A stretch of DNA of 64,000 nt from an uncultured Bacillales bacterium (GCA_946414655.1 CAMKPL010000002.1:133765-197764); one strand, 5' to 3'; counted from the first letter of the stretch, positions 7,661 through 33,196 are shown. Made by a program: numbers and translations. The notes: generated by a model from the letters alone, not told the origin.

Positions 7661-8110
7661 ATGAAAATTGTTATTCAAAATGTAACAAGAGCCTCATGTG
7701 AGGTTGATAAAAAAATCGTGGGAAGTATTTCCCGCGGTTTTTGTCTATTTGTTGGTTTTACCAATGGAGATAATAAAGAGCTCGTTGAAAAGATGAGTAA
7801 TAAACTTCTTTCGTTACGTTTGTTTGATGACAAAAATGGTAAGACAAATCTTTCTTTGAAAGATATTAACGGAGAAATCCTCTCGATTTCGCAGTTTACT
7901 TTGTATGCATCGGTTAAAGATGGACGTCGTCCAAGCTTTGTTAATGCTCTTAATCCAAATGAAGCTAGTGAATTATACGATTACTTTAATCAATGTCTAA
8001 AAGATGCTGGATATAAAGTAGAAACTGGTATTTTTGGTGCAATGATGAAAATTGATTTAGTCAATGATGGCCCATTTACAACCATCCTTGATTCAAAGGA
8101 GCTTTTCTAA
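7661..8110 (+). CDS. dtd: D-aminoacyl-tRNA deacylase
   Basis: 149 aa. 'SQFTLYA' and the C-terminal 'NDGPFT' motif are characteristic of Dtd. Confidence 0.85.
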   Translation: MKIVIQNVTRASCEVDKKIVGSISRGFCLFVGFTNGDNKELVEKMSNKLLSLRLFDDKNGKTNLSLKDINGEILSISQFTLYASVKDGRRPSFVNALNPNEASELYDYFNQCLKDAGYKVETGIFGAMMKIDLVNDGPFTTILDSKELF

Positions 8111-9270: not shown

Positions 9271-10269
9271 TCTATTGATTGATTTAGCTTCTGCTTCATC
9301 AAACATATTGAGCAGATGTTCAACTGTGAGATTTTGTTTTTCTTTTCCGGAGATGTCGTGAATGATCTTTCCTTCATAGAACATGATTAAGCGGTCACCG
9401 TAAGTAATCGCATCACGCATGTTATGTGTGACCATGAGGGTGGTTAGTTTATTCTCACGGACAATCTTTTCTGTTAAGGCAAGAACCTTCTTGGCGGTTT
9501 TTGGATCAAGCGCTGCAGTGTGCTCATCAAGAAGAAGAATTTGTTTTGTGAGATCGTATTTACGAATCTTGGCATCAAATTCATCATATAAAGCACGCTT
9601 TTTGGCGCGTTTTTCTTTGCAAGAAAGTTTCTCCTTAGAAAGTTCTTTTAAAGCCTCTTTGTAGGCTTGTTTAGCATCATTATAAACTCTCGTCACTTCT
9701 TGTTTGGCTTTTTCTTTATCACCAATATAGAAAGTCGAATAATCTTTAATGATTTGTTTATGCGATGGTTCAGCTCTTAATGTTGCCATTAACAATGTTA
9801 ATGCTTGACGTTGTCCGCCAGAAAGAACACTTGTTTTAGTTGTTAAACGTGTTTCTAATCCAAGATTGAAACTCTTTAACATCTCAATGTATTTTTGTTT
9901 TTGTTCTTTGTTGATGTACCAACCTAAACCATTATGTCCGCCTTTACGTGAGGCAATCGCCATGTTTTCAATGACTTGCATTGATCCAGCAGTACCTTTG
10001 TTCGTGTCTTGGAAGACACGGGCGAAGTATTTAGCGCGTTTATTCTCTGGCATGTTGGTAATATCAACATCGTTAAGTAAAACAGCGCCTTGATCTGGAT
10101 TCATATTTCCAGTAAGAACATTTAATGTAGTTGATTTTCCGCTTCCGTTTCCACCAATAATAGTGACAAATTCGCCATCATTTATGGTGAAAGAAACATT
10201 GTTTAAAGCAACTTTTTCATCAGCTGTTCCTTTGTAGAAGACTTTTGTAACGTTTTTAAAAGATAACAT
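9268..10269 (-). CDS. ABC transporter ATP-binding protein, COG1101-like. It carries an about 78-aa Lys/Glu-rich insert between the signature motif and Walker B.
   Basis: Walker A 'GGNGSGKST', signature 'LSGGQRQ', Walker B 'ILLLDEHTAALD', H-loop 'THNM'. Insert is 'RAEPSHKQ...KIRKYDLTKQ'. Confidence 0.8.
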   Translation of the reverse strand: MLSFKNVTKVFYKGTADEKVALNNVSFTINDGEFVTIIGGNGSGKSTTLNVLTGNMNPDQGAVLLNDVDITNMPENKRAKYFARVFQDTNKGTAGSMQVIENMAIASRKGGHNGLGWYINKEQKQKYIEMLKSFNLGLETRLTTKTSVLSGGQRQALTLLMATLRAEPSHKQIIKDYSTFYIGDKEKAKQEVTRVYNDAKQAYKEALKELSKEKLSCKEKRAKKRALYDEFDAKIRKYDLTKQILLLDEHTAALDPKTAKKVLALTEKIVRENKLTTLMVTHNMRDAITYGDRLIMFYEGKIIHDISGKEKQNLTVEHLLNMFDEAEAKSINR

Positions 10270-18799: not shown

Positions 18800-18967
18800 A
18801 ATATGGTTTACATTTGTAAAAAAATGTTTACAAACACTTTCATTAATAATATATTAATAAGCGTTGTCGCCTCACAAGCTACAACCGCATAGAAAAGGTA
18901 ACTAACTTATTACTCATAGTAATAGACCTTAATAGCGAGTCTTGAGTGAGAAAGTCGAGGTATATTT
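18800..18967 (+). promoter_or_regulatory. rplU 5' leader region containing two short palindromes; possible L21-leader autoregulatory RNA.
   Basis: Palindrome TTTGTAAA-N7-TTTACAAA overlaps a TTTACA(-35)-17-TATATT(-10) promoter. Second palindrome ATTACTCATAGTAAT. The 168-nt untranslated leader is typical of Firmicute rplU operons. Confidence 0.3.
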
Positions 18968-23818: not shown

Positions 23819-26512
23819 ATGCGTCGTTTAATTGCTTATATCTCGATGGTCATCGCCATCTTAATCGGTGTTGGCGTATCTTTTGCTCCAACATTTACCA
23901 AAATGAAAGAAGGTCGTGAATTCGCTTCTGGTCGTGAAATTGTCTTTACCCTTAAGGATAAAGAAAATGAAGCTGATCCAGTAAAAGCAGATGCCGCAGA
24001 AAAAGTTGCCGATATCATGAAGGAACGTTTAGACCTCATGAATGTCGAAGACTATTCTGTTAAGATTGGCACAAACAAAGACGACCCAAGCCAAGTTTAT
24101 GCAGATACGATTTCTGTTTCTTTCTCAACCCAAGACGACACCTTATTTAACTATGTTTCTCGTTTACTTGAATTCTCCGGTAAGGATTTCTCTTTAAGAG
24201 GAAACCTTGATGAAGCCTTTGCTGAAAACGTCTTTAAAGACGTTGAAGCTTATATTTATCGTGATTCAGGCACAATTCCTTATGTTATTTTCCCTGTTTC
24301 CGATAGTGAAGCCGTCAAAACTTTCTTAAAAGTTGTTAGCGGTGAAGATGAAGAATCAGAAGATTCTGGAGCAAAAAGTCTCCTACTTCCAAAATTCGCT
24401 GAAGCTGATGAAGGCGAAGGAGAAAGCGAAGAAGAAGGCGAACAAAAGAATCCAGATGTTTTCCTTTGTGGAAACTGGGGTGATGATGACTCCATTGAAA
24501 AAGCATCTGAAAACCCATATTCAGCCGAGAAGGTTATTTGTTCTTGGAACCACGAGAACATTTGGAACCCAGATTCAAAAGAAGCCGAAACTGAATTACG
24601 TTTCCTCTGTGGATCTGCCAATGAATCCGGTGAATACGATTTAACCGCTTTAAAGAAAGCGAACCAACAAGCATCATTCCTTTTAGGAATGTTTAACGCA
24701 AAAGAATACGAAGTCGCTGTTGAAAACAAGTTTAAAGACGTCACCGTTGATGGTGGGATTAAATATAACTATCTCACTGTTGAAGCTTCTTATGAAAACC
24801 TCATTTCCTTTGAAGGAAATAGCACTAAGCTTGCTTGGTCAGCGACACTTAAAGCAACTTTAATTGGTGTCGTCATTGTTTCTTTACTTTTAGCAATGTT
24901 CTTCCGTTTACAATCTTTGGCCGCGATTGCAACAAGTTTATTAAGCTTGTTCTTCACGTATTTACTATTCTTCGCCATGACTCCAACATTTAATGTTGCA
25001 GCCATTGTTGGAGGTATTGTTGTTGCTCTCCTTTCGATTTTTGGTGAAATTGTTTATATGCATCGCTTCCGTGATGAAGTTTATAAAGGACGTAGTTTAA
25101 AGAAAGCTAATACTGAAGCATTTAGACGTTCAAACTTAATTGTTCTTGATGGAACAGTTTTAGTTGGTGCAAGTGGATTACTCTTCTACCTTCTTGGAGG
25201 TGAAGCTTTAAAATCATTCGGAGTGATCGCTTTCTTTGGTGCAATTATTTCCTTTGTTTTATTCCACATTGTCTATCGTATTTTGAATTGGCTTTTAGCC
25301 AATACAACAAATATTCAAACTAAATATAGTTTGTTTAATATTGACGAAAGCAAAGTTCCAAACATTGCTCTTGATGAAAAGCCAAACTTTGAAAGCCCAT
25401 ATGAGAAAACCGATTTTACTAAGAAACGCAAAGCGTTAGGTATTGTTGGTGGCGTCTTATTGGTTGCTTCCTTAGCTGGTATCATCACTTTTGGTGTATT
25501 AAATGGTTCACCAATTAACACCAAGAAAGCATCAGATGATCACTCAGTCATCTATACATCAATTCAAGCTGATGATGACAGATTAAATTCCACACTCTTT
25601 AGTGATGAAATCTTAGCCAAGATTGTTATCGACGGCAAAGCCGTTAACGTGAAAAATGTTTCTGTCGAATTTAAAGAAACAAAGAGCTACGATCTTGATG
25701 AAAAACTCGAAAAGACAACATATCAATATGTTGCTAAATTCGATAATGTGCTCTCCAACGATAAAGTCCAATACAAGGATGGAGAAGATTTAAAAGATGC
25801 GGAGAATTTACAAGATGCGGTAGTTAATCTTGTTGAAAAATATGAAATTATTGAAAATGGTGTCACTGCCGATGTTCGTGTCACCGGTGAAACTGTTTCA
25901 ACTCCAAATCAAGGCGAAATTGCTTTAGCAACCGGCATTACTTTAGCAGCCGCATTTGTCTACTGCGCTTTCCGCTATCGTTTATCTCGTGCTTGTAGCT
26001 TACTTGTTGTGAGCACTGGTGTGACAACCGTGACATACGGATTACTCACACTTACACGTCTAGCCACATCATCCGTGAGCGCAATTTTACTTCCAATCGT
26101 TGCCATCTCATCCTTATTAACTGCTCTCTTCTACTTAAGTAGAGAGAAAGAACTTGATAAAGAAGAAAAGGCCTATGATGCTGAAAAGCGAAGCGCACTT
26201 GTTGCTCGCGCTGCTTCACTTAGTGCATTACCAGTATTCACTTTTGCATTAATTGGTGGATACCTAGCGATTAACTTCTTTGGTTTTGGACCAGTTGAAT
26301 TAACAATCCTCTTTGGTGCAGTGATTGTCGGAACAGTATTAACTGTTCTTGCAGTGCTCTCACTTATGGGTCCACTTGCTAGTGTCTTTGATCGCTTATT
26401 CAGCAAGGTTCGCTTACCAAAATTACGCCGTCATAAAGAAAACAAACAACATTCGCTTAAACCAAAAACAAGTGAACCACAAGAAACAATCTTTATCGGT
26501 ATTAACGACTAA
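23819..26512 (+). CDS. secDF: Fused protein-export membrane protein SecDF (897 aa) with an about 180-aa acidic, Cys-containing insertion in the first periplasmic domain.
   Basis: 12 TM segments in two blocks with periplasmic domains. Conserved SecD/SecF TM motifs. Insert is 'SGEDEESEDSGAK...GEGESEEEGEQ...FLCGNWGDDD...VICSWNHE...FLCGSANESG'. Confidence 0.85.
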   Translation: MRRLIAYISMVIAILIGVGVSFAPTFTKMKEGREFASGREIVFTLKDKENEADPVKADAAEKVADIMKERLDLMNVEDYSVKIGTNKDDPSQVYADTISVSFSTQDDTLFNYVSRLLEFSGKDFSLRGNLDEAFAENVFKDVEAYIYRDSGTIPYVIFPVSDSEAVKTFLKVVSGEDEESEDSGAKSLLLPKFAEADEGEGESEEEGEQKNPDVFLCGNWGDDDSIEKASENPYSAEKVICSWNHENIWNPDSKEAETELRFLCGSANESGEYDLTALKKANQQASFLLGMFNAKEYEVAVENKFKDVTVDGGIKYNYLTVEASYENLISFEGNSTKLAWSATLKATLIGVVIVSLLLAMFFRLQSLAAIATSLLSLFFTYLLFFAMTPTFNVAAIVGGIVVALLSIFGEIVYMHRFRDEVYKGRSLKKANTEAFRRSNLIVLDGTVLVGASGLLFYLLGGEALKSFGVIAFFGAIISFVLFHIVYRILNWLLANTTNIQTKYSLFNIDESKVPNIALDEKPNFESPYEKTDFTKKRKALGIVGGVLLVASLAGIITFGVLNGSPINTKKASDDHSVIYTSIQADDDRLNSTLFSDEILAKIVIDGKAVNVKNVSVEFKETKSYDLDEKLEKTTYQYVAKFDNVLSNDKVQYKDGEDLKDAENLQDAVVNLVEKYEIIENGVTADVRVTGETVSTPNQGEIALATGITLAAAFVYCAFRYRLSRACSLLVVSTGVTTVTYGLLTLTRLATSSVSAILLPIVAISSLLTALFYLSREKELDKEEKAYDAEKRSALVARAASLSALPVFTFALIGGYLAINFFGFGPVELTILFGAVIVGTVLTVLAVLSLMGPLASVFDRLFSKVRLPKLRRHKENKQHSLKPKTSEPQETIFIGIND

Positions 26513-26554: not shown

Positions 26555-28135
26555 ATGGACCGTTTATATCACGAACTTCTCAATTACTATCACCTTTCTG
26601 AAGATGAGTTTTTAAAGATGTCATGTCCCTTAGAAGAGATTCATCTAATTGAACCAACTTCGATTAAGGGAATGAATCGAGTTAAGTCACGTATTTTTGA
26701 ATCAATCAAAAACAACGAAAAGATTATTATCTATGGTGATTATGATTGTGATGGAATCAGTGCTACATCAATCATGTATCGCACATTCCAAATCCTCAAT
26801 TACCATGTTTCTTATTACATTCCATCACGTTATTTAGACGGATATGGACTTAATGTCCAAAACGTTGAAAAGATTGCTTTAGCCGGCTACAAACTAATTA
26901 TTTGTGTCGATAACGGCATCTCTCAACATGAAGCGATTCATCGTGCCAAAGAACTTGGTATTGACGTTATCGTTATTGACCATCATGAAGTTCCTGAAGT
27001 AAGAACTGAAGCGTACGAGATTATTCATCCAACTGTTTCCGAAATTTCAGAGATTATTGGTTCAGGCGGATTTATGGCGTTATATGTTTCAGCTGCACTT
27101 CTTGGTTCATATGATGATTATTTAGTGACAATTGCTGGTTTAAGTGTCATTTCCGACATGATGGAATTAAAAGGTCAAAATCGTGACCTTGTTCGACTCG
27201 CTGTGAACAATTTTGAGAAGAATAAATACCTTCCTCTCCGCTTGTTAGCGGAATCTCCAATCATTTCTGAGAAATCATTCTCGATGGAAATCGCGCCGAA
27301 AATTAACGCGATTGGACGTCTGATGGAGAAAAACGAGGCCAATCTTCTTGTGAAATATTTCACAACAGATAATGACCAAGATGTTTATTCACTATGTGAT
27401 TGGATTAACCGTATCAACGCTGAGCGAAAAGAAATCACACGAGAAACCGTCGATAACCTTCAAGAGGACTTCTCTAGTTTACCTGGTATCTGTGTCAACA
27501 TTGATACAAAAGAAGGCATTATTGGTTTGATTGCCAATCGGTTCTTAAATTTATATAACGTTCCTTCTTTAGTTTTCACAAAGGATGTTTTACATCCTGA
27601 AATCTTAAAAGGTTCAATTCGATCAAAAGAAGGATTTAATGTCACAAAAGCATTTAAATCCCTAGAAAAATATCTTGTTACTGGTGGTGGACACTCCTTT
27701 GCTGGAGGCTTATCCATCAAAGCAAACGACTTTGAAGAATTTAAAAAAGAATTCCTCAAACTTTGTGAGCAATACAGGATTGAAGAAAGCAAACATCCAA
27801 GCATCGATATTTCCCTTTCTGAAATCACCATGTCGAACTATGAACTTGTTCGCAAATTTGCTCCATTTGGAATGGGTTTTGAAGAACCTCTATTCTCTAT
27901 TGAGAATATTCCAACTAGAGGCCTAACATTTATCTGTGAAGGAAAACACCTCTCCACACCATTAACAATCCAATCAAAATTACTCGGTTTTAATATGAGT
28001 AAAGATGAGATTCAGTCAGCGTCTTTAATGAACATTGAAGGCCACTTTAACCTCTCTTCATTTAAAGGCGCAAAGACGCTTGAATTTCGAATTTCAAAAT
28101 ATAATCTTCACCAATCTAGCGCACCTGTGCGATAA
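26555..28135 (+). CDS. recJ: Single-stranded-DNA-specific exonuclease RecJ, short form with DHH + DHHA1 core only.
   Basis: DHH motifs 'IIIYGDYDCDGISA' and 'VIDHHE'. DHHA1 'GGGHSFAGG'. Conserved position after secDF as in Bacillus. Confidence 0.75.
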   Translation: MDRLYHELLNYYHLSEDEFLKMSCPLEEIHLIEPTSIKGMNRVKSRIFESIKNNEKIIIYGDYDCDGISATSIMYRTFQILNYHVSYYIPSRYLDGYGLNVQNVEKIALAGYKLIICVDNGISQHEAIHRAKELGIDVIVIDHHEVPEVRTEAYEIIHPTVSEISEIIGSGGFMALYVSAALLGSYDDYLVTIAGLSVISDMMELKGQNRDLVRLAVNNFEKNKYLPLRLLAESPIISEKSFSMEIAPKINAIGRLMEKNEANLLVKYFTTDNDQDVYSLCDWINRINAERKEITRETVDNLQEDFSSLPGICVNIDTKEGIIGLIANRFLNLYNVPSLVFTKDVLHPEILKGSIRSKEGFNVTKAFKSLEKYLVTGGGHSFAGGLSIKANDFEEFKKEFLKLCEQYRIEESKHPSIDISLSEITMSNYELVRKFAPFGMGFEEPLFSIENIPTRGLTFICEGKHLSTPLTIQSKLLGFNMSKDEIQSASLMNIEGHFNLSSFKGAKTLEFRISKYNLHQSSAPVR

Positions 28136-28158: not shown

Positions 28159-30474
28159 ATGAACACAAAGAAAATAATTCTTCCATTAGTAGCATTATTT
28201 CTTTTAGCTGGCTGTAATTCTGGTTCGAAGAAAACGAGTAAAAAATCCGGAACTAGCCAATCGCCAACACCAAGTGAACAAAAAATTCCATCTTATGATG
28301 GATTGCCTGATTATGGTGAATATGAAGGCACACCAGGAGTTGGAGAAAACCATATTCAATCTATTTCTGCATCTCCAAATAAGACGCATTTAGCCTATGT
28401 TGGTGATGTTTTTACAATCGATTCATCAGTTTCACCTTCATCGATTCCTGAAGAAGAGAAAGTATTTTCATACACATCTTCAAATGAATCTATTGCATCT
28501 GTCAAGATTCTTGATGAAGGACCTGATGGCGAGGTGACATGTTTATCTCCTGGAAAAACAACAATTACGGTTTATTCTTTTGAAAAGAGATTTAAAAGGG
28601 AAATTGTCTTAACAGTTTATGAAAAATCCGATTCAACCGATTTTTATCAAGTTGGCACGAATGCAAACAATGATAAAAAGAAATTTGGTTGGGTCGATAA
28701 AAGATATTTTGATGGCGATAGTGCTGGTGTAACTCAGCTCGGAAGAAACTTCTGGAAGTTCCTTAGATCCCAACCATCCAAGATTGCTACCTATGGTGGA
28801 GCGCTTGCTTTTGGTAGTGCAAACGCCCCAGAAGGATCATTTGAATTATCAACTGTTTTCCAATATCCTGTTGAATCTGTTATTTTAAATTGCTCCAGCG
28901 CTCCTGAAACTGATCCATCAACAGGGATTAATACATCCTACGGAAGTTCAACAATTGATTCATGGATTGGTGAAAATCATTTCGATATTACTATTAACGG
29001 AACAAAATATTCACCAACCAGTGCGATACATACTGCTCGCGGAACTGATGACGCTACTTGTAGTGATCATATCATTGATTGTAAGAATATGTCAGGTGAA
29101 TTCCATGTTAAGCTTGGTGCATCTGCTGGATATATCCGTATTAAATCAATTGTCATTAATTACGCAAATCGTGTTTTCCCAAGCGGCAATGAATCGACCG
29201 CAAACATCAATTTTGATGAAGCATCGTTTACGACCACACCTTCTTCATCATTTAAAGCCAATACCTGTAAAGACGCCAATAATCTTGTTAATGTTGCTCT
29301 TTCATATATGAAAGAAAAGGATGCTGCTGTGGAGAATCATTACGCCATGCGTGGTAACTCAACATTAATCATCACACCTGTTGATAAAACAAAAACAATT
29401 AAGAGTGTTGATGCCACATTTGCCCAATACACACTTCCAGAAGACGAAGTTGATAAAGATGGAAAAGTTATAAAAGAAGCCGGTACTGTTATTATAAATA
29501 ACATTACCACTCGTGAATCCTATACTAACGCCGACGCAATTCTCGATAATTTCCCATCAAAAGAAAACAATGTTAAACTAACAAATTTAAACCTTGGTAC
29601 AAACTGGGTAGAAATCAAAAATGCTCAAACTCAAACAAGTGGATATCTTCTAGGATTAGTTTCACTAAAAGTGGAACTTACTGATGCTGTTACACCGGCT
29701 TCCTTTAGTAAGATGGAAATTGAAGGTCATGTCTTACAAGATACGTATGATTATGAGTCAACAACATATCGTGATACATTTAAAGATCGCGGATGTGCTG
29801 TGAATGCATATTTTACGAATCCAAATCTAATGCCAATCATGCTTAACTCAAATGATTTAAACTTTAAGACAGTTAAAGATTCTCTGAGCTGGAATGCCCT
29901 TAGTTTAGGCGATACAAGTGTTAGTGGAACATCAAAATATGGTGCATTGACATATGAAGGCATTACAGTTCAACAACACGAAAATAAACAATGGAAAAAA
30001 GCGACCAGTGTGGGAGAAGGAAAATATCTAATTGTCTCACGTGAAACACATAAGTGTTTTTCTGGAATCGGAACTAATACACAGATGCAAAACGGGACAA
30101 CGGATTTTGTTGTTAGTTTGAACACCGATAATATGATTGATGGAAGTTACCAAATTGATTATTCCTATTTCACATTTACATCAACTACAAGCAATCATTT
30201 CCGTGCTGATAGTCGCTCCGAATACTTTATTAATGGATTGACAAGCAGTGGTAAGATTTCCTTCTCATATTCAAGTAATGTCTCTTTGTTCCTTGTTCAA
30301 AATGAAGGCGGATTTGATATCCATTATAGTCAAAACAAAAAACAAGACGATGGAACCTATGTTACATACGAATATGTTTTTGGTTTAACTTCATCTGGAT
30401 ATTTCTCTTTTGTTGATGTGACAAGTGAGGCAAGTCAACTTCCAGAACCTGTTGATTTCTATCGTCTTGCCTAG
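28159..30474 (+). CDS. Large surface lipoprotein (771 aa) of unknown function, with an N-terminal Big_2-like Ig domain.
   Basis: Lipobox 'FLLAGC'. Ser/Thr/Pro/Lys-rich linker. Big_2-like 'AYVGDVFTIDSSVSP...VTCLSPGKTTITVY'. Remainder has no recognisable catalytic motifs. Confidence 0.6.
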   Translation: MNTKKIILPLVALFLLAGCNSGSKKTSKKSGTSQSPTPSEQKIPSYDGLPDYGEYEGTPGVGENHIQSISASPNKTHLAYVGDVFTIDSSVSPSSIPEEEKVFSYTSSNESIASVKILDEGPDGEVTCLSPGKTTITVYSFEKRFKREIVLTVYEKSDSTDFYQVGTNANNDKKKFGWVDKRYFDGDSAGVTQLGRNFWKFLRSQPSKIATYGGALAFGSANAPEGSFELSTVFQYPVESVILNCSSAPETDPSTGINTSYGSSTIDSWIGENHFDITINGTKYSPTSAIHTARGTDDATCSDHIIDCKNMSGEFHVKLGASAGYIRIKSIVINYANRVFPSGNESTANINFDEASFTTTPSSSFKANTCKDANNLVNVALSYMKEKDAAVENHYAMRGNSTLIITPVDKTKTIKSVDATFAQYTLPEDEVDKDGKVIKEAGTVIINNITTRESYTNADAILDNFPSKENNVKLTNLNLGTNWVEIKNAQTQTSGYLLGLVSLKVELTDAVTPASFSKMEIEGHVLQDTYDYESTTYRDTFKDRGCAVNAYFTNPNLMPIMLNSNDLNFKTVKDSLSWNALSLGDTSVSGTSKYGALTYEGITVQQHENKQWKKATSVGEGKYLIVSRETHKCFSGIGTNTQMQNGTTDFVVSLNTDNMIDGSYQIDYSYFTFTSTTSNHFRADSRSEYFINGLTSSGKISFSYSSNVSLFLVQNEGGFDIHYSQNKKQDDGTYVTYEYVFGLTSSGYFSFVDVTSEASQLPEPVDFYRLA

Positions 30475-30518
30475 TCGAACAAGCAAGAATAGATTTATCT
30501 ATTAAAAATAAAATGGAT

Positions 30519-30552
30519 TTCGTTATCTACACGAAGTCCTTTTTGTTATAAT
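30519..30552 (+). terminator. Probable terminator after the 771-aa lipoprotein gene
   Basis: GGAUUUCG-uuaucuacac-CGAAGUCC (one G-U pair) followed by UUUUUG. Confidence 0.4.
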
Positions 30553-30622
30553 ATTTAATATAGAAGTGAAAAACGTACGATTTCATTTCTATTAGTAATA
30601 GAAAGGAGATTATAAATTACTT

Positions 30623-31255
30623 ATGAAAAAAACTACTTTAGTTTTACTCCCAGTCTTAGGTGCACTTCTTCTTGCTGGTTGTACAACCGCAAAGAGGCCA
30701 AACAAGAAAAAATCTTCTAGTGCTACCGTTACTTCCAAAACCACATCTCAAGGTGGTGGTGGTAACACTTCCCAAGGTGGCGGTGGCAATACCTCCCAAG
30801 GTGGTGGTGGTAACACTTCCCAAGGCGGAGGCGGCGGAGGCGGCGGTAACGGCACTGTTACCCTTAAAGCTAACGCTGATAAAAGCGCTCAAGATACAAC
30901 TTCAGTTACATTCTCAAATTCTGGTTATACTGTTCTAATTGAACAAGGTAGCAATACCCAAAACACCATTGAAGATTGTGTTAGTAAAACTGGACAAAAT
31001 TCTTTTAGAATGTATAAGGCATTTGACGTTACATTTAGCGCCCCATCTGCATTCAGCAAGCTTGAAATCCAATGGTTCAGCTTCAATGATGAGCCAACTA
31101 AATACGCATTTAATTTCGAAAATGATAATGCGACATTTGAGATGGATCAAACAAACATGAAGACAACCGTCACACTTAAATCTGCTGCAAGCAGCATTAA
31201 GTACGCCAACATCGCTCATCAAGCTCGTGTTGATACCGTTACGTTTATTGCTTAA
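30623..31255 (+). CDS. Small surface lipoprotein (210 aa) with an (S/T)QGGGGN(T) low-complexity linker; paralog of the next gene.
   Basis: Lipobox 'LLLAGC'. 'TSQGGGGNTSQGGGGNTSQGGGGNTSQGGGGGGGGNG'. C-terminal about 130-aa beta-rich domain ending '...VDTVTFIA'. Confidence 0.6.
   Translation: MKKTTLVLLPVLGALLLAGCTTAKRPNKKKSSSATVTSKTTSQGGGGNTSQGGGGNTSQGGGGNTSQGGGGGGGGNGTVTLKANADKSAQDTTSVTFSNSGYTVLIEQGSNTQNTIEDCVSKTGQNSFRMYKAFDVTFSAPSAFSKLEIQWFSFNDEPTKYAFNFENDNATFEMDQTNMKTTVTLKSAASSIKYANIAHQARVDTVTFIA
30745..30860 (+). repeat. Tandem near-identical 21-24-bp coding repeats (ACnTCcCAAGGtGGtGGtGGtAAc x4-5) encoding the TSQGGGGN linker.
   Basis: Direct reading of the sequence. The same repeat DNA recurs at 31500-31565 in the adjacent paralog. 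Confidence 0.7.
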
Positions 31256-31300
31256 TATCAGGGAAGACTAATAAGTTAATTTCTATTACAACCAAGAGAG

Positions 31301-31340
31301 GATTATAAATCCTCTCTTTTTCTTTTTCTTCAAATAATAT
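31301..31340 (+). terminator. Rho-independent terminator after the 210-aa lipoprotein gene
   Basis: AGAGAGGAT-tataa-ATCCTCTCT followed by TTTTTCTTTTTCTT. Confidence 0.6.
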
Positions 31341-31369
31341 AAAATATTATGTGAAAGAAGGGTTTTAAT

Positions 31370-33094
31370 ATGAATAAAAAATTCCTTATTCTTCCAATCG
31401 TCTCGGCTCTTTTGTTAGCGGGATGTACACTTGGAGGAAAAAAATCTAACAGGAAGAAAAAATCTTCTAGTGCAGTGATTACTTCTTCTGTAACCTCAGG
31501 AGGAAACACTTCTCAAGGTGGTGGTGGTAACACCTCGCAAGGTGGCGGTGGCAATACCTCTCAACCAAGCGGAAGTAGTTCGACACCAGCTCCAACAGAT
31601 TGGTCCTCTGCTGAAGCATCTGCTTTTAGTACAGCGTTCCACGGTATTGTCCCAGCTTATTTTTCTGTTGGGCTTGATTCAGAAGAATCTCAAGCAGAGT
31701 ATGGTTATTTCGTTTCAAAAGCAACAACCGAAGCAATTGCTGATGCCTACTATAATGGCCTCGATTCAACATGGGAAATCGCCTATGATGCAGATGGATA
31801 CGAAGAGAAGCATAAGACTCCTACTGATAACACGGGTTATGTTGTTTGCTATGTAGGTGGTGATCTTAGCGGAAACATTTTTGTTGTTTGGCAATGGTAT
31901 TCTCCAGTCACTTCACTTTCATTGAGTGGAACTCAAAATACTGAATTTGATGTTGGTGACACATTTAGTTACGAAGGCTTAGTTGTCACAGTTAACTTTA
32001 AAGATGGTGACACCATGTCATTTGATTCTGTAGAAGACATTGAATACTATTTCACCGTTACATCTCCAGACATGACTACAGCCGGTCAAAAAACAATTAC
32101 TGTTTCATATTCTGTAGATGAAACAACGACGGTCACAGCAAGCTACACAATTAATGTTAAATCTTCTGTGAAATATACTGTTTCATTTGATGGTGGTGAA
32201 GGAACAGGAACCATGTCCGATGTTGAAGCATCCGAGGGAAGTTATACTCTTCCAGGTTCAACATTTGTTGCCCCAGAAGGCAAAGCCTTTGCCGGTTGGA
32301 AAGCCAATAATACTGGTGACTTAATCCCAGCTGGTGGAACATATAACTTAACTGCTGCTGTGACATTCTATGCTCAATGGGCAAACGAATATACCGTTTC
32401 ATTCTCCGCAGGAGAAGGTAGTGGCACAATGGATCCAGTCAAAGTTGGAGAAGGTGGTAAGATTAGCGAACCAACCTGCACATTTACTGCTCCAACTGGA
32501 AAAGAATTTGATAAATGGGTCATTGGAACCGAAGCTGTTACATTCCCATATACTGTTACAGGCAATGTTACCTTAACCGCAACATGGAAAGAAAAAGCAA
32601 CACCTGTTCAATCAGTCAAATATACGATTGATAATCCAGCCGATCAATATGGTAAGAAATTCTCTGAATTAACTGCAGACCAAATTCTTTCCGGCTTTGT
32701 CTCAAACGGAGCAAATGTCATTACCGAGGTCAAAGATTATAATGCTAACGTTTATTTCGGCGGAAACGGTGGTTCTGGTGATACAGCATTCACCATTGTC
32801 GATGCATTTAAACTTGGTAAGAGTAAAGCAAAAGGCGAGGCAACAGTTGTCATTGGCTCTGGATATTCATTCTCTAAATTAGTTTTAACAGTTGTTGGAC
32901 AACGTGATGATGGTTCGTTAACCGTTAATGGCGTTGAAAAAGCTGTTACAGCTAAAGCTGGTCCAGGTGATCTTACTACACAAACTCTTGAGTTTGATAT
33001 TGCTAGTGGCACAACTGAATTTGTGATGTCATCTAAAGATGATTCAACCGGAAACTTTAGTATTTACATCTTAAGTCTTGAATTTGTTGCCTAA
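31370..33094 (+). CDS. Surface lipoprotein (574 aa) with Gly-rich linker, Listeria-Bacteroides-type (Flg_new) repeats, and a C-terminal domain shared with the 210-aa paralog.
   Basis: Lipobox 'LLLAGC'. 'TSQGGGGNTSQGGGGNTSQ'. Two about 65-aa repeats 'YTVSFDGGEGTGTM...FAGWKAN...TFYAQWA' and 'YTVSFSAGEGSGTM...FDKWVIG...TLTATWK'. C-terminus ends '...IYILSLEFVA'. Confidence 0.65.
   Translation: MNKKFLILPIVSALLLAGCTLGGKKSNRKKKSSSAVITSSVTSGGNTSQGGGGNTSQGGGGNTSQPSGSSSTPAPTDWSSAEASAFSTAFHGIVPAYFSVGLDSEESQAEYGYFVSKATTEAIADAYYNGLDSTWEIAYDADGYEEKHKTPTDNTGYVVCYVGGDLSGNIFVVWQWYSPVTSLSLSGTQNTEFDVGDTFSYEGLVVTVNFKDGDTMSFDSVEDIEYYFTVTSPDMTTAGQKTITVSYSVDETTTVTASYTINVKSSVKYTVSFDGGEGTGTMSDVEASEGSYTLPGSTFVAPEGKAFAGWKANNTGDLIPAGGTYNLTAAVTFYAQWANEYTVSFSAGEGSGTMDPVKVGEGGKISEPTCTFTAPTGKEFDKWVIGTEAVTFPYTVTGNVTLTATWKEKATPVQSVKYTIDNPADQYGKKFSELTADQILSGFVSNGANVITEVKDYNANVYFGGNGGSGDTAFTIVDAFKLGKSKAKGEATVVIGSGYSFSKLVLTVVGQRDDGSLTVNGVEKAVTAKAGPGDLTTQTLEFDIASGTTEFVMSSKDDSTGNFSIYILSLEFVA
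31500..31565 (+). repeat. Second copy of the (ACTTCNCAAGGTGGNGGTGGNAA)n linker repeat DNA, about 95% identical over about 55 bp to 30766-30830.
   Basis: caaggtggtggtggtaacacctcgcaaggtggcggtggcaatacctctcaa compared with caaggtggtggtggtaacacttcccaaggtggcggtggcaatacctcccaa. Confidence 0.7.
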
Positions 33095-33107
33095 TTAATG
33101 AACATTT

Positions 33108-33142
33108 GATTAGAGGCTAGTTCATCTGGCCTCTTTTCTTAT
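33108..33142 (+). terminator. Rho-independent terminator after the lipoprotein cluster
   Basis: AGAGGC-tagttcatctg-GCCTCT followed by TTTCTT. Followed by an extended -10 'TGgTATAAT' promoter for relA. Confidence 0.55.
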
Positions 33143-33196
33143 GCCTATATTACTTCGCTTTTCTTTTTAAAGAACGTTGGTATAATATTTAGCAAG

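Follow-up and report, generated by a model that had tools for sequence, protein, structure and literature searches.

A polymorphic locus of three lipoprotein genes at the recJ-relA junction of an uncultured Bacillales bacterium

OspC of Borrelia is a surface lipoprotein encoded at a fixed locus; its deep allele classes are older than the genome around them and are moved by recombination. PspA and PspC (CbpA) of pneumococci have mosaic alleles at a fixed site, and combine conserved export and anchor parts with hypervariable exposed modules that are exchanged by homologous recombination. SusE and SusF of Bacteroides carry a lipid anchor, an Ig-like spacer and beta-sandwiches resembling carbohydrate-binding modules (CBMs), with poor sequence conservation between strains. 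Here we describe a locus that resembles each of these in part. It lies in a 64,000-nucleotide stretch of DNA from an uncultured Bacillales bacterium (GCA_946414655.1, CAMKPL010000002.1:133765-197764), referred to as the window, and consists of three adjacent lipoprotein genes, termed LP1, LP2 and LP3, between recJ and relA (28159-33094). It is a polymorphic surface-protein locus, of a pattern that is known elsewhere and has not been described for the RFN20/CAG-826 group of bacteria.

An open reading frame (ORF) list gave the three genes the same coordinates and lengths as an earlier annotation made from the DNA alone (the sequence-only reading), and Pfam domains identify RecJ and RelA/SpoT as the housekeeping flanks which that reading had proposed. 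The genes are as follows.

26555-28135, plus strand: recJ (Pfam DHH, DHHA1 and RecJ_OB), the left flank and proposed left recombination anchor
28159-30474, plus strand: LP1 lipoprotein gene, 771 residues
30623-31255, plus strand: LP2 lipoprotein gene, 210 residues
31370-33094, plus strand: LP3 lipoprotein gene, 574 residues
33197-35398, plus strand: relA/spoT (Pfam HD_4, RelA_SpoT, TGS and ACT), the right flank and proposed right recombination anchor

All sequences compared with the window are from metagenome-assembled genomes (MAGs) or metagenome contigs, and are labelled L001, L003 and so on. Contigs of the same species were taken to be those with RecJ 96-99% and RelA 99% identical to the window (the genus-wide values are 85-89% and 93-96%, respectively). 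Measured against the window, the conspecific alleles are 100, 96, 58 or 33% identical in LP1, 100% or 66-69% in LP3, and 95-99% in LP2. The variation is mosaic, with breakpoints where the signal peptide ends and where neighbouring domains adjoin. In L003, the DNA is 96% identical to the window up to position 28235, where the LP1 signal peptide ends and the alignment stops; no DNA similarity is detectable over the mature LP1 coding region, and similarity resumes at 30488 and extends over LP2 as far as the LP3 linker, at 94.7% identity. The signal peptides of the two LP1 proteins are 100% identical, and their mature parts 29-39%. A different division is encountered in L033, which is 96-98% identical to the window in recJ, LP1 and LP2, 57-61% at 31555-32154 (the N-terminal domain and Big_3 domain of LP3), 94-96% at 32155-32554 (the B-repeats), 73-78% at 32755-33154 (the second half of the CBM-like domain), and 96% in relA. 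The segments concerned are these.

28159-28235, plus strand: signal-peptide and lipobox coding segment of LP1, the final conserved stretch before the allele breakpoint
31592-31915, plus strand: N-terminal alpha/beta domain of LP3 (residues 75-182), part of the hypervariable block, 38% identical between conspecific strains
31916-32161, plus strand: Big_3 Ig-like domain of LP3 (residues 183-264; Pfam PF07523), in the same hypervariable block, 46% identical
32162-32593, plus strand: two InlB B-repeat (Listeria-Bacteroides repeat) domains of LP3 (residues 265-408), 96-99% identical in conspecifics
32594-33091, plus strand: C-terminal beta jelly roll of LP3, of CBM type (residues 409-574), whose 3' half is the second divergent block

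The flanking genes have a synonymous divergence (dS) of 0.12-0.18 and a ratio of nonsynonymous to synonymous divergence (dN/dS) of 0.01-0.06. Between LP3 alleles, dS is 0.59-0.81, dN about 0.24 and dN/dS 0.3-0.4; between the LP1 genes of the window and L003, dN is 0.69 and dS is saturated. Overall, dN/dS of the lipoprotein alleles is 0.3-0.5. Their dS is 4-10 times the flank value, so they predate the backbone that carries them and are not merely evolving faster. Their relationships also cross species boundaries. LP1 of L003 shares 61% identity with its counterpart in L035 and 57% with the one in L006, both from other species (relA DNA 84-88% identical), but only 31% with the conspecific allele of the window; LP3 of the window is 71% identical to that of L007, as against 66-68% to conspecific alleles. 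The reverse case is L001: all along secDF-recJ it diverges from the window by 2-6%, yet 28200-30599 contains no mismatch and 31000-33000 a single one. The window haplotype occurs in three assemblies (the window, L001 and L002), and a common haplotype in five contigs (L009, L033, L034, L037 and L038). Across the genus, the LP2 slot holds at least three mature domains with no recognisable similarity to one another, behind the same conserved signal peptide.

The locus therefore combines a fixed site with deep, discrete alleles that are older than their flanks and show signs of recombinational exchange, and the variable surface proteins that had been proposed here do show strong allelic variation and look like exposed proteins. 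In these respects it is similar to OspC, where the locus is likewise fixed and the deeply divergent within-species alleles are older than their surroundings and recombined between backgrounds. It differs from OspC in its three adjacent slots, its domain-level mosaicism and the non-homologous replacement in the LP2 slot, and there is no relation in sequence or fold; the host here is a commensal rumen bacterium, while that of OspC is a vector-borne pathogen. With PspA and PspC (CbpA), the locus has in common a fixed site between conserved genes, mosaic alleles, and conserved export and anchor modules next to hypervariable ones, which would be exposed and exchanged by homologous recombination. 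However, the pneumococcal proteins come from an unrelated organism and combine choline-binding or LPXTG anchoring with coiled coils, in contrast to the lipid anchor and all-beta architecture seen here.

The organism was placed by a RelA-based scan with one genome per GTDB species, in which the matches were rumen and gut MAGs. Bacillales bacterium UBA4278 has 99% RelA protein and 96.5% relA DNA identity to the window, and is therefore probably the same species. A MAG set that includes UBA3207 follows at 93-96% RelA identity, others at 71-73%, and Coprobacillus sp. CAG:826, among others, at 57-63%. The window organism is close to the GTDB genus UBA3207 (Candidatus Fiminaster), which belongs to the family CAG-826 of the order RFN20 (PMC8957277). 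This family is predicted to be peptidoglycan-deficient and without sortases (PMC10868615). By analogy, the window organism is probably free of peptidoglycan and wall-less. If the family prediction holds for the window genome, the lipoproteins would be directly exposed surface proteins, as in mollicutes, and the comparison with mollicutes drawn in the sequence-only reading is apt.

In all 13 full-length loci recovered from the genus, representing about seven species-level lineages, the order is recJ-LP1-LP2-LP3-relA. Three or four lipoprotein genes separate recJ from relA in the loci of the window, L001, L003, L005-L009 and L033-L038. The sister genera L011, L012 and L016 (RelA 71-73%) likewise have three or four such genes at the junction; these are mostly unrecognisable by BLAST, except for the N-terminal part of LP1 in L016 and L011. 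It follows that the locus is old and fixed: it is lineage-specific, yet ancestral to a genus-level or larger clade, and its content varies. The gene-order comparison thus speaks against the accessory insertion that had been suggested. Nor was a foreign origin borne out by codon usage, since the GC content at third codon positions and the synonymous codon usage of LP1-LP3 are within the spread of the other genes of the window; the slightly higher GC content of LP2 and LP3 is due to their Gly/Ala/Thr-rich composition. Recent foreign acquisition was rejected on these grounds.

Among CAG-826-family genomes, the recJ-relA junction is a recurrent site of gene-content change. In the more distant relatives it holds one small lipoprotein gene (L013, CAG:826; 9305-9895), apt (L015, 9476-9988), an ABC exporter pair (L017, 5712-9277), an ABC exporter pair with a MarR-like gene (L018, 5578-9841), or no gene (L019, 9926-10001). 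The expectation that apt should occupy the junction is thus matched, among the relatives examined, by L015 alone. A fourth lipoprotein gene, of 231 residues, lies between LP3 and relA in L006 (9227-9922) and L007 (2675-3370). Its product carries the motif ...EANPYSPSQA... followed by a beta-rich region, and is nearly identical in the two despite the different proteins in their LP2 and LP3 slots. Another small-lipoprotein domain recurs in L012 (9211-9888), L016 (9236-9976), L011 (9133-9891) and the C-terminal part of L006 7975-9126, and occupies the last slot of sister-genus loci. Its pattern, …YIYGIYQA.LDK..[YF].NGDHH…F.IQIIGGG…YDG.[YF]LEVY…, judged by eye, suggests a beta-trefoil-like lectin fold.

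Variable lipoproteins of mycoplasmas (Vlp, Vsa, Vpma and VlhA) are a further point of comparison, as the cell is mollicute-like and probably wall-less, and the coding regions contain in-frame tandem repeats. As in Vlp, Vsa and Vpma, the genes stand in tandem, with a conserved 5' end and signal peptide and divergent mature parts. Unlike the mycoplasma systems, this locus lacks a switching apparatus, no paralogous silent copies were detected, and LP1 is almost without homologues. There is no recombinase ORF between recJ and relA, there are no long inverted repeats at the locus (only imperfect ones of 16-22 nt), and there is no homopolymer or repeat tract in a promoter. Tandem repeats are found in the linker coding regions, save for a 16-nt TCTTTT run (31315-31330) inside the T-tract after the LP2 terminator. 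Phase variation was therefore rejected. Given that switching machinery is absent and all three genes have expression signals of their own, the variation is allelic between strains and does not arise within a clone.

The three proteins have a common export module. Their N-termini read MNTKKIILPLVALFLLAGC (LP1), MKKTTLVLLPVLGALLLAGC (LP2) and MNKKFLILPIVSALLLAGC (LP3); beyond these, each protein has first a K-rich and then an S/T/G-rich stretch. In all three, a K-rich n-region and a hydrophobic core precede L-L-A-G-C (residues 15-19 or 16-20), an arrangement that agrees with the N-terminal pattern [LVI][ASTVI][GAS]C of bacterial lipoproteins processed by the Lgt/LspA pathway; LP1 also gives a weak match to Pfam LPAM_1. 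The LLAGC lipobox and S/T/K/G-rich linker noted earlier are thus present in each, and a long linker is limited to LP1-LP3 among the five lipobox ORFs of the window. The signal peptides are 59-66% identical to one another. LP2 and LP3 additionally have in common a KKKSSS segment and 24-nt linker repeats, which are 92% identical over 61 nt and encode the GGGGNTSQ units of both linkers.

30742-30846, plus strand: 24-nt tandem repeats (3.5 copies) and a GGC run, encoding the Gly-rich LP2 linker; repeat family D1, also found in LP3
31505-31564, plus strand: coding repeats of the LP3 linker, 2.5 tandem copies of 24 nt, with 92% identity to those of LP2

Beyond this module the proteins differ. In BLASTP comparisons of LP1, LP2 and LP3, the alignment is confined to the signal peptide and the linker, the linker part being between LP2 and LP3. 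When ortholog-based profiles of the mature domains were compared by hhalign, the probability reached 28% at best, which is not significant. These two comparisons led us to reject paralogy of the three mature proteins, and the tandem family with a shared C-terminal domain that the sequence-only reading had proposed reduces to a signal peptide and linker in common. A jelly-roll fold class may nonetheless be common to the mature proteins, which for LP1 would be based on a low-confidence model.

LP1 consists of a signal peptide and lipobox (residues 1-19), a linker, a Big_2 domain at about residues 63-157, and four all-beta regions of orphan type. The Big_2 domain is supported by Pfam and by a PDB profile, and the relatives of LP1 have no other Pfam domain. 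A word-indexed search of 5.8 billion clusters found only three LP1 clusters; among 1.84 billion representatives, 25 proteins matched at E<=1e-3 and seven at E<=1e-30. The AlphaFold2 (AF2) model, from an alignment of three sequences, is poor and all beta (predicted local distance difference test score, pLDDT, 40). A short form of 349-352 residues, comprising the N-terminal Big_2 and the following domain alone, occupies the LP1 slot in two species (L005, 3535-4593; L036, 7805-8854), and remote matches mostly cover just the first ~190 residues. Because both are restricted to the N-terminal part, this pair of domains looks like a conserved core, with a variable remainder.

In LP2, a signal peptide, a K-rich segment and a GGGGNTSQ repeat linker precede a beta domain of 133 residues, for which six clusters of relatives were found altogether. 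As judged by such searches, LP1 and LP2 are two orphan protein families. LP3 has about nine full-length relatives, and its central region links it to hundreds of InlB B-repeat proteins. The small size of the families (25 matches for LP1, six clusters for LP2 and about nine full-length relatives for LP3) upholds the lineage specificity that had been claimed. No enzyme family was matched by any of the three in Pfam, NCBIfam or PDB-sequence searches, in line with the earlier remark that the largest member has no recognisable catalytic motif.

The fold classes of LP3 are better defined. Its AF2 model has a mean pLDDT of 77.6, with about 85-93 in the mature part. Residues 265-408 form two InlB B-repeats (PF09479, a repeat of ~70 residues recognised by sequence or structure), and these two central repeats place LP3 in the InlB B-repeat superfamily. 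Among the InlB B-repeat (PF09479/TIGR02543) proteins of gut Firmicutes, the relatives are mostly larger, typically 700-1000 residues, and pair the repeat with modules such as SLH (PF00395) or dockerin (PF00404); in contrast, the repeats of LP3 are placed in a lipoprotein, between a Big_3 and a CBM-like domain. The model of the C-terminal domain has the beta-sandwich jelly-roll fold of CBMs, with 4-17% identity to the structural matches; no CBM family of Pfam matches LP3 at E<=0.1. The alpha/beta N-terminal domain is weakly conserved and was detected in most, not all, lineages of the genus, with different C-terminal modules behind it. LP3 resembles SusE and SusF in its lipid anchor, Ig-like spacer and C-terminal CBM-like beta-sandwich. 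Unlike those proteins, it is encoded outside any polysaccharide utilisation locus, with no SusC/SusD or transporter nearby, in a single-membrane cell, and there is no sequence homology.

The expression signals in and after the locus are the following.

30515-30539, plus strand: terminator hairpin with T-run after LP1, the stem invariant in eight loci
30540-30622, plus strand: promoter-like TGTTATAAT box of LP2, leader with a 12-bp hairpin, and ribosome-binding site (RBS), near-invariant in six species
31294-31318, plus strand: terminator hairpin with T-run after LP2, with compensatory stem changes between species
33112-33134, plus strand: terminator hairpin with T-run after LP3

Each gene had been credited with a terminator and a promoter of its own. 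The terminators stand, and both internal hairpins, after LP1 and after LP2, are kept across species. As to promoters, LP2 and LP3 are each preceded by a conserved TATAAT-like box and RBS, which come after the terminator of the gene before, but a generic promoter scan gave chance-level results (31 sites against 29.5 expected), and LP1 is probably co-transcribed with recJ, given that 23 nt without a terminator separate the recJ stop from the LP1 start.

The intergenic regions 30540-30622 and 31256-31369 are almost invariant over about six species, where the coding flanks have a dS of about 1, and the 12-bp hairpin of the LP2 leader is immediately upstream of the RBS. A special conserved RNA leader before LP2 was considered, but this is undercut by the control intergenic regions ruvB-secDF, secDF-recJ and relA-hisS, which are conserved equally (80-100%), and by the fold of the leader, which does not differ significantly from that of shuffled sequences (z -1.44). 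Rfam gathering-threshold and E-value scans of the locus found no RNA family, with one chance-level match. A 10-mer, ATTTCTATTA, has exactly two copies in the window, at 30585 and 31279; these bracket the LP2 coding region and lie within the invariant blocks.

The explanation that we favour, and consider on balance the probable one, is that LP1-LP3 are exposed binding proteins encoded at an old three-slot locus, kept diverse by diversifying selection and exchanged by homologous recombination. It starts from the anatomy of the locus, its lipoprotein signals, its fixed position, the mosaic diversity of its alleles and the fold classes recognised in LP3; from these we infer surface exposure, ligand binding, a selective agent, and recombination as the mechanism. 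The recJ-relA junction would be an old, fixed locus with three expression slots, each with a module of terminator, promoter and RBS, signal peptide, LLAGC lipobox, K-rich segment and flexible S/T/G linker. Such a module would export an all-beta ectodomain and anchor it by lipid at the cell surface. The ectodomains would be modules of binding type (Big_2, Big_3, InlB B-repeats and CBM-like jelly rolls), most likely acting as adhesins or glycan-binding proteins toward surfaces of plant, host or microbial origin. Phages, host antibody or niche differences would impose diversifying or frequency-dependent selection that keeps the allele classes, and homologous recombination would replace the exposed parts, whole or domain-wise and also across species. 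recJ, relA, and the conserved intergenic and signal-peptide segments would serve as recombination anchors.

Several observations weigh against this explanation. LP1 is not modelled (pLDDT 40), so that more than half of the coding capacity is without a fold assignment, and it may hide an unrecognised catalytic domain. At the lipoprotein genes dN/dS is below 1, for which reason positive selection is not demonstrated, and the pattern could reflect old alleles combined with relaxed constraint. Individual mosaics, above all L001, could be strain chimeras of metagenome assembly. Finally, the wall-less state is a family-level prediction from the literature, and was not read from the window genome.

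The competing explanations differ in how they account for the variation. The proteins might serve nutrient capture, as surface glycan-binding lipoproteins in the manner of SusE and SusF, with the variation reflecting polysaccharide specialisation and not escape from antibody or phages. The lipid anchor, Ig-like spacer and C-terminal CBM-like module of LP3 would suit this role, as would the rumen or gut habitat and the presence of different C-terminal modules in the same slot of different species. However, no transporter, glycoside hydrolase or regulator is found in or next to the locus, the neighbours being secDF, recJ, relA and hisS; divergence in LP3 is not confined to the CBM-like domain, its strongest blocks being the membrane-proximal N-terminal domain and Big_3; and LP3 has no sequence match to a CBM family in Pfam. 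We regard nutrient capture as unlikely, though the least unlikely of the competitors. The proteins might also include an extracellular enzyme that went unrecognised (a glycanase, peptidase or nuclease, for example), LP1 being the main candidate, in which about 600 residues are without a family or reliable fold; in wall-less bacteria, surface lipoprotein enzymes are common. Against this, nothing past Big_2 matches Pfam, NCBIfam or a PDB sequence, the 14 LP1 family members have few invariant columns and no recognisable catalytic motif, and LP1 is predicted to be all beta, its weak fold matches being Ig-like and CBM-type modules. Conspecific LP1 alleles are, moreover, 31-39% identical in every domain, which would be unusual for an enzyme, and this possibility appears quite improbable.

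Neutral drift of weakly constrained, fast-evolving membrane proteins would give the divergence no special functional meaning. It would be compatible with the orphan families and with a dN/dS of 0.3-0.5, which stays below 1 although it is roughly tenfold the value in the flanks. It fits poorly with the intact reading frames in every recovered locus, with the age of the alleles relative to the backbone (dS 4-10 times the flank value), and with sharp boundaries at domain borders, where B-repeats 96-99% identical are embedded in a divergent gene. The identical cassette on a diverged backbone in L001 and the allele relationships that cross species are also difficult to reconcile with drift, which we therefore consider improbable. 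The mosaicism might instead be an artefact of assembling mixed strains, as the comparison depends entirely on MAGs and metagenome contigs, strains co-exist in the rumen, and a chimeric join at shared k-mers would yield the pattern seen in L001. Yet the same allele combinations recur across independent samples and assemblers, in five contigs of the common haplotype and three of the window haplotype. This recurrence makes chimeras unlikely as a general explanation, though L001 alone could be one. Mis-joins of near-identical strains could not create alleles that are 33-58% identical, and slot-wise replacement is also seen between L006 and L007, which are ~95% identical in relA. An assembly artefact is thus very improbable as the source of the pattern.

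A more far-reaching form of the favoured explanation, offered tentatively and with more doubt than confidence, is that the three sockets constitute a "plug-in display" system of wall-less rumen Bacilli, in which unrelated binding ectodomains are swapped within and between species from a trans-specific module pool. The sockets (terminator, promoter, leader, signal peptide, lipobox and linker) would then double as recombination anchors, and the invariant 10-mer ATTTCTATTA that flanks LP2 could mark the borders of a cassette.

The surroundings of the locus are largely those of a housekeeping region; farther from the junction, the gene tables list Obg, NadE, RuvAB, HisS, AspS, transketolase, NusB and XseA. 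Upstream of recJ (23819-26512), a membrane protein of 897 residues is a mycoplasma-type SecDF that has diverged strongly. Pfam gives no match for it at E<=0.01; its top NCBIfam match is SecDF_plasm (3e-42, far under the curated cutoff), and it matches the SecDF structure 3aqp in the PDB weakly (1e-5). An acidic low-complexity insert is present near residues 175-215. In Bacillus, dtd is positioned after relA; here the D-Tyr-tRNA deacylase gene (Pfam 1.4e-55) is at 7661-8110, about 25 kb upstream of relA, and no apt homologue was found in the window. Ahead of the rplU region, at 18873-18952, Rfam RF00559 identifies a ribosomal protein L21 leader with 43.8 bits, which exceeds the gathering score.

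Bacteria of the RFN20/CAG-826 group are abundant in the guts of ruminants and other mammals, are uncultured, and are predicted to be without a cell wall. The locus is a compact candidate for the main exposed proteins of these bacteria, and can easily be located, since it is always between recJ and relA. Strains that are alike in housekeeping genes differ radically at the surface, so the locus may be of use for strain typing in rumen metagenomes, for choosing ectodomains for binding studies, and for reading strain coexistence and the pressure of phages and host in a commensal. The orphan families LP1 and LP2 merit structures. Above all, the locus adds a case from a non-pathogen to the allele-class polymorphism of surface lipoproteins.

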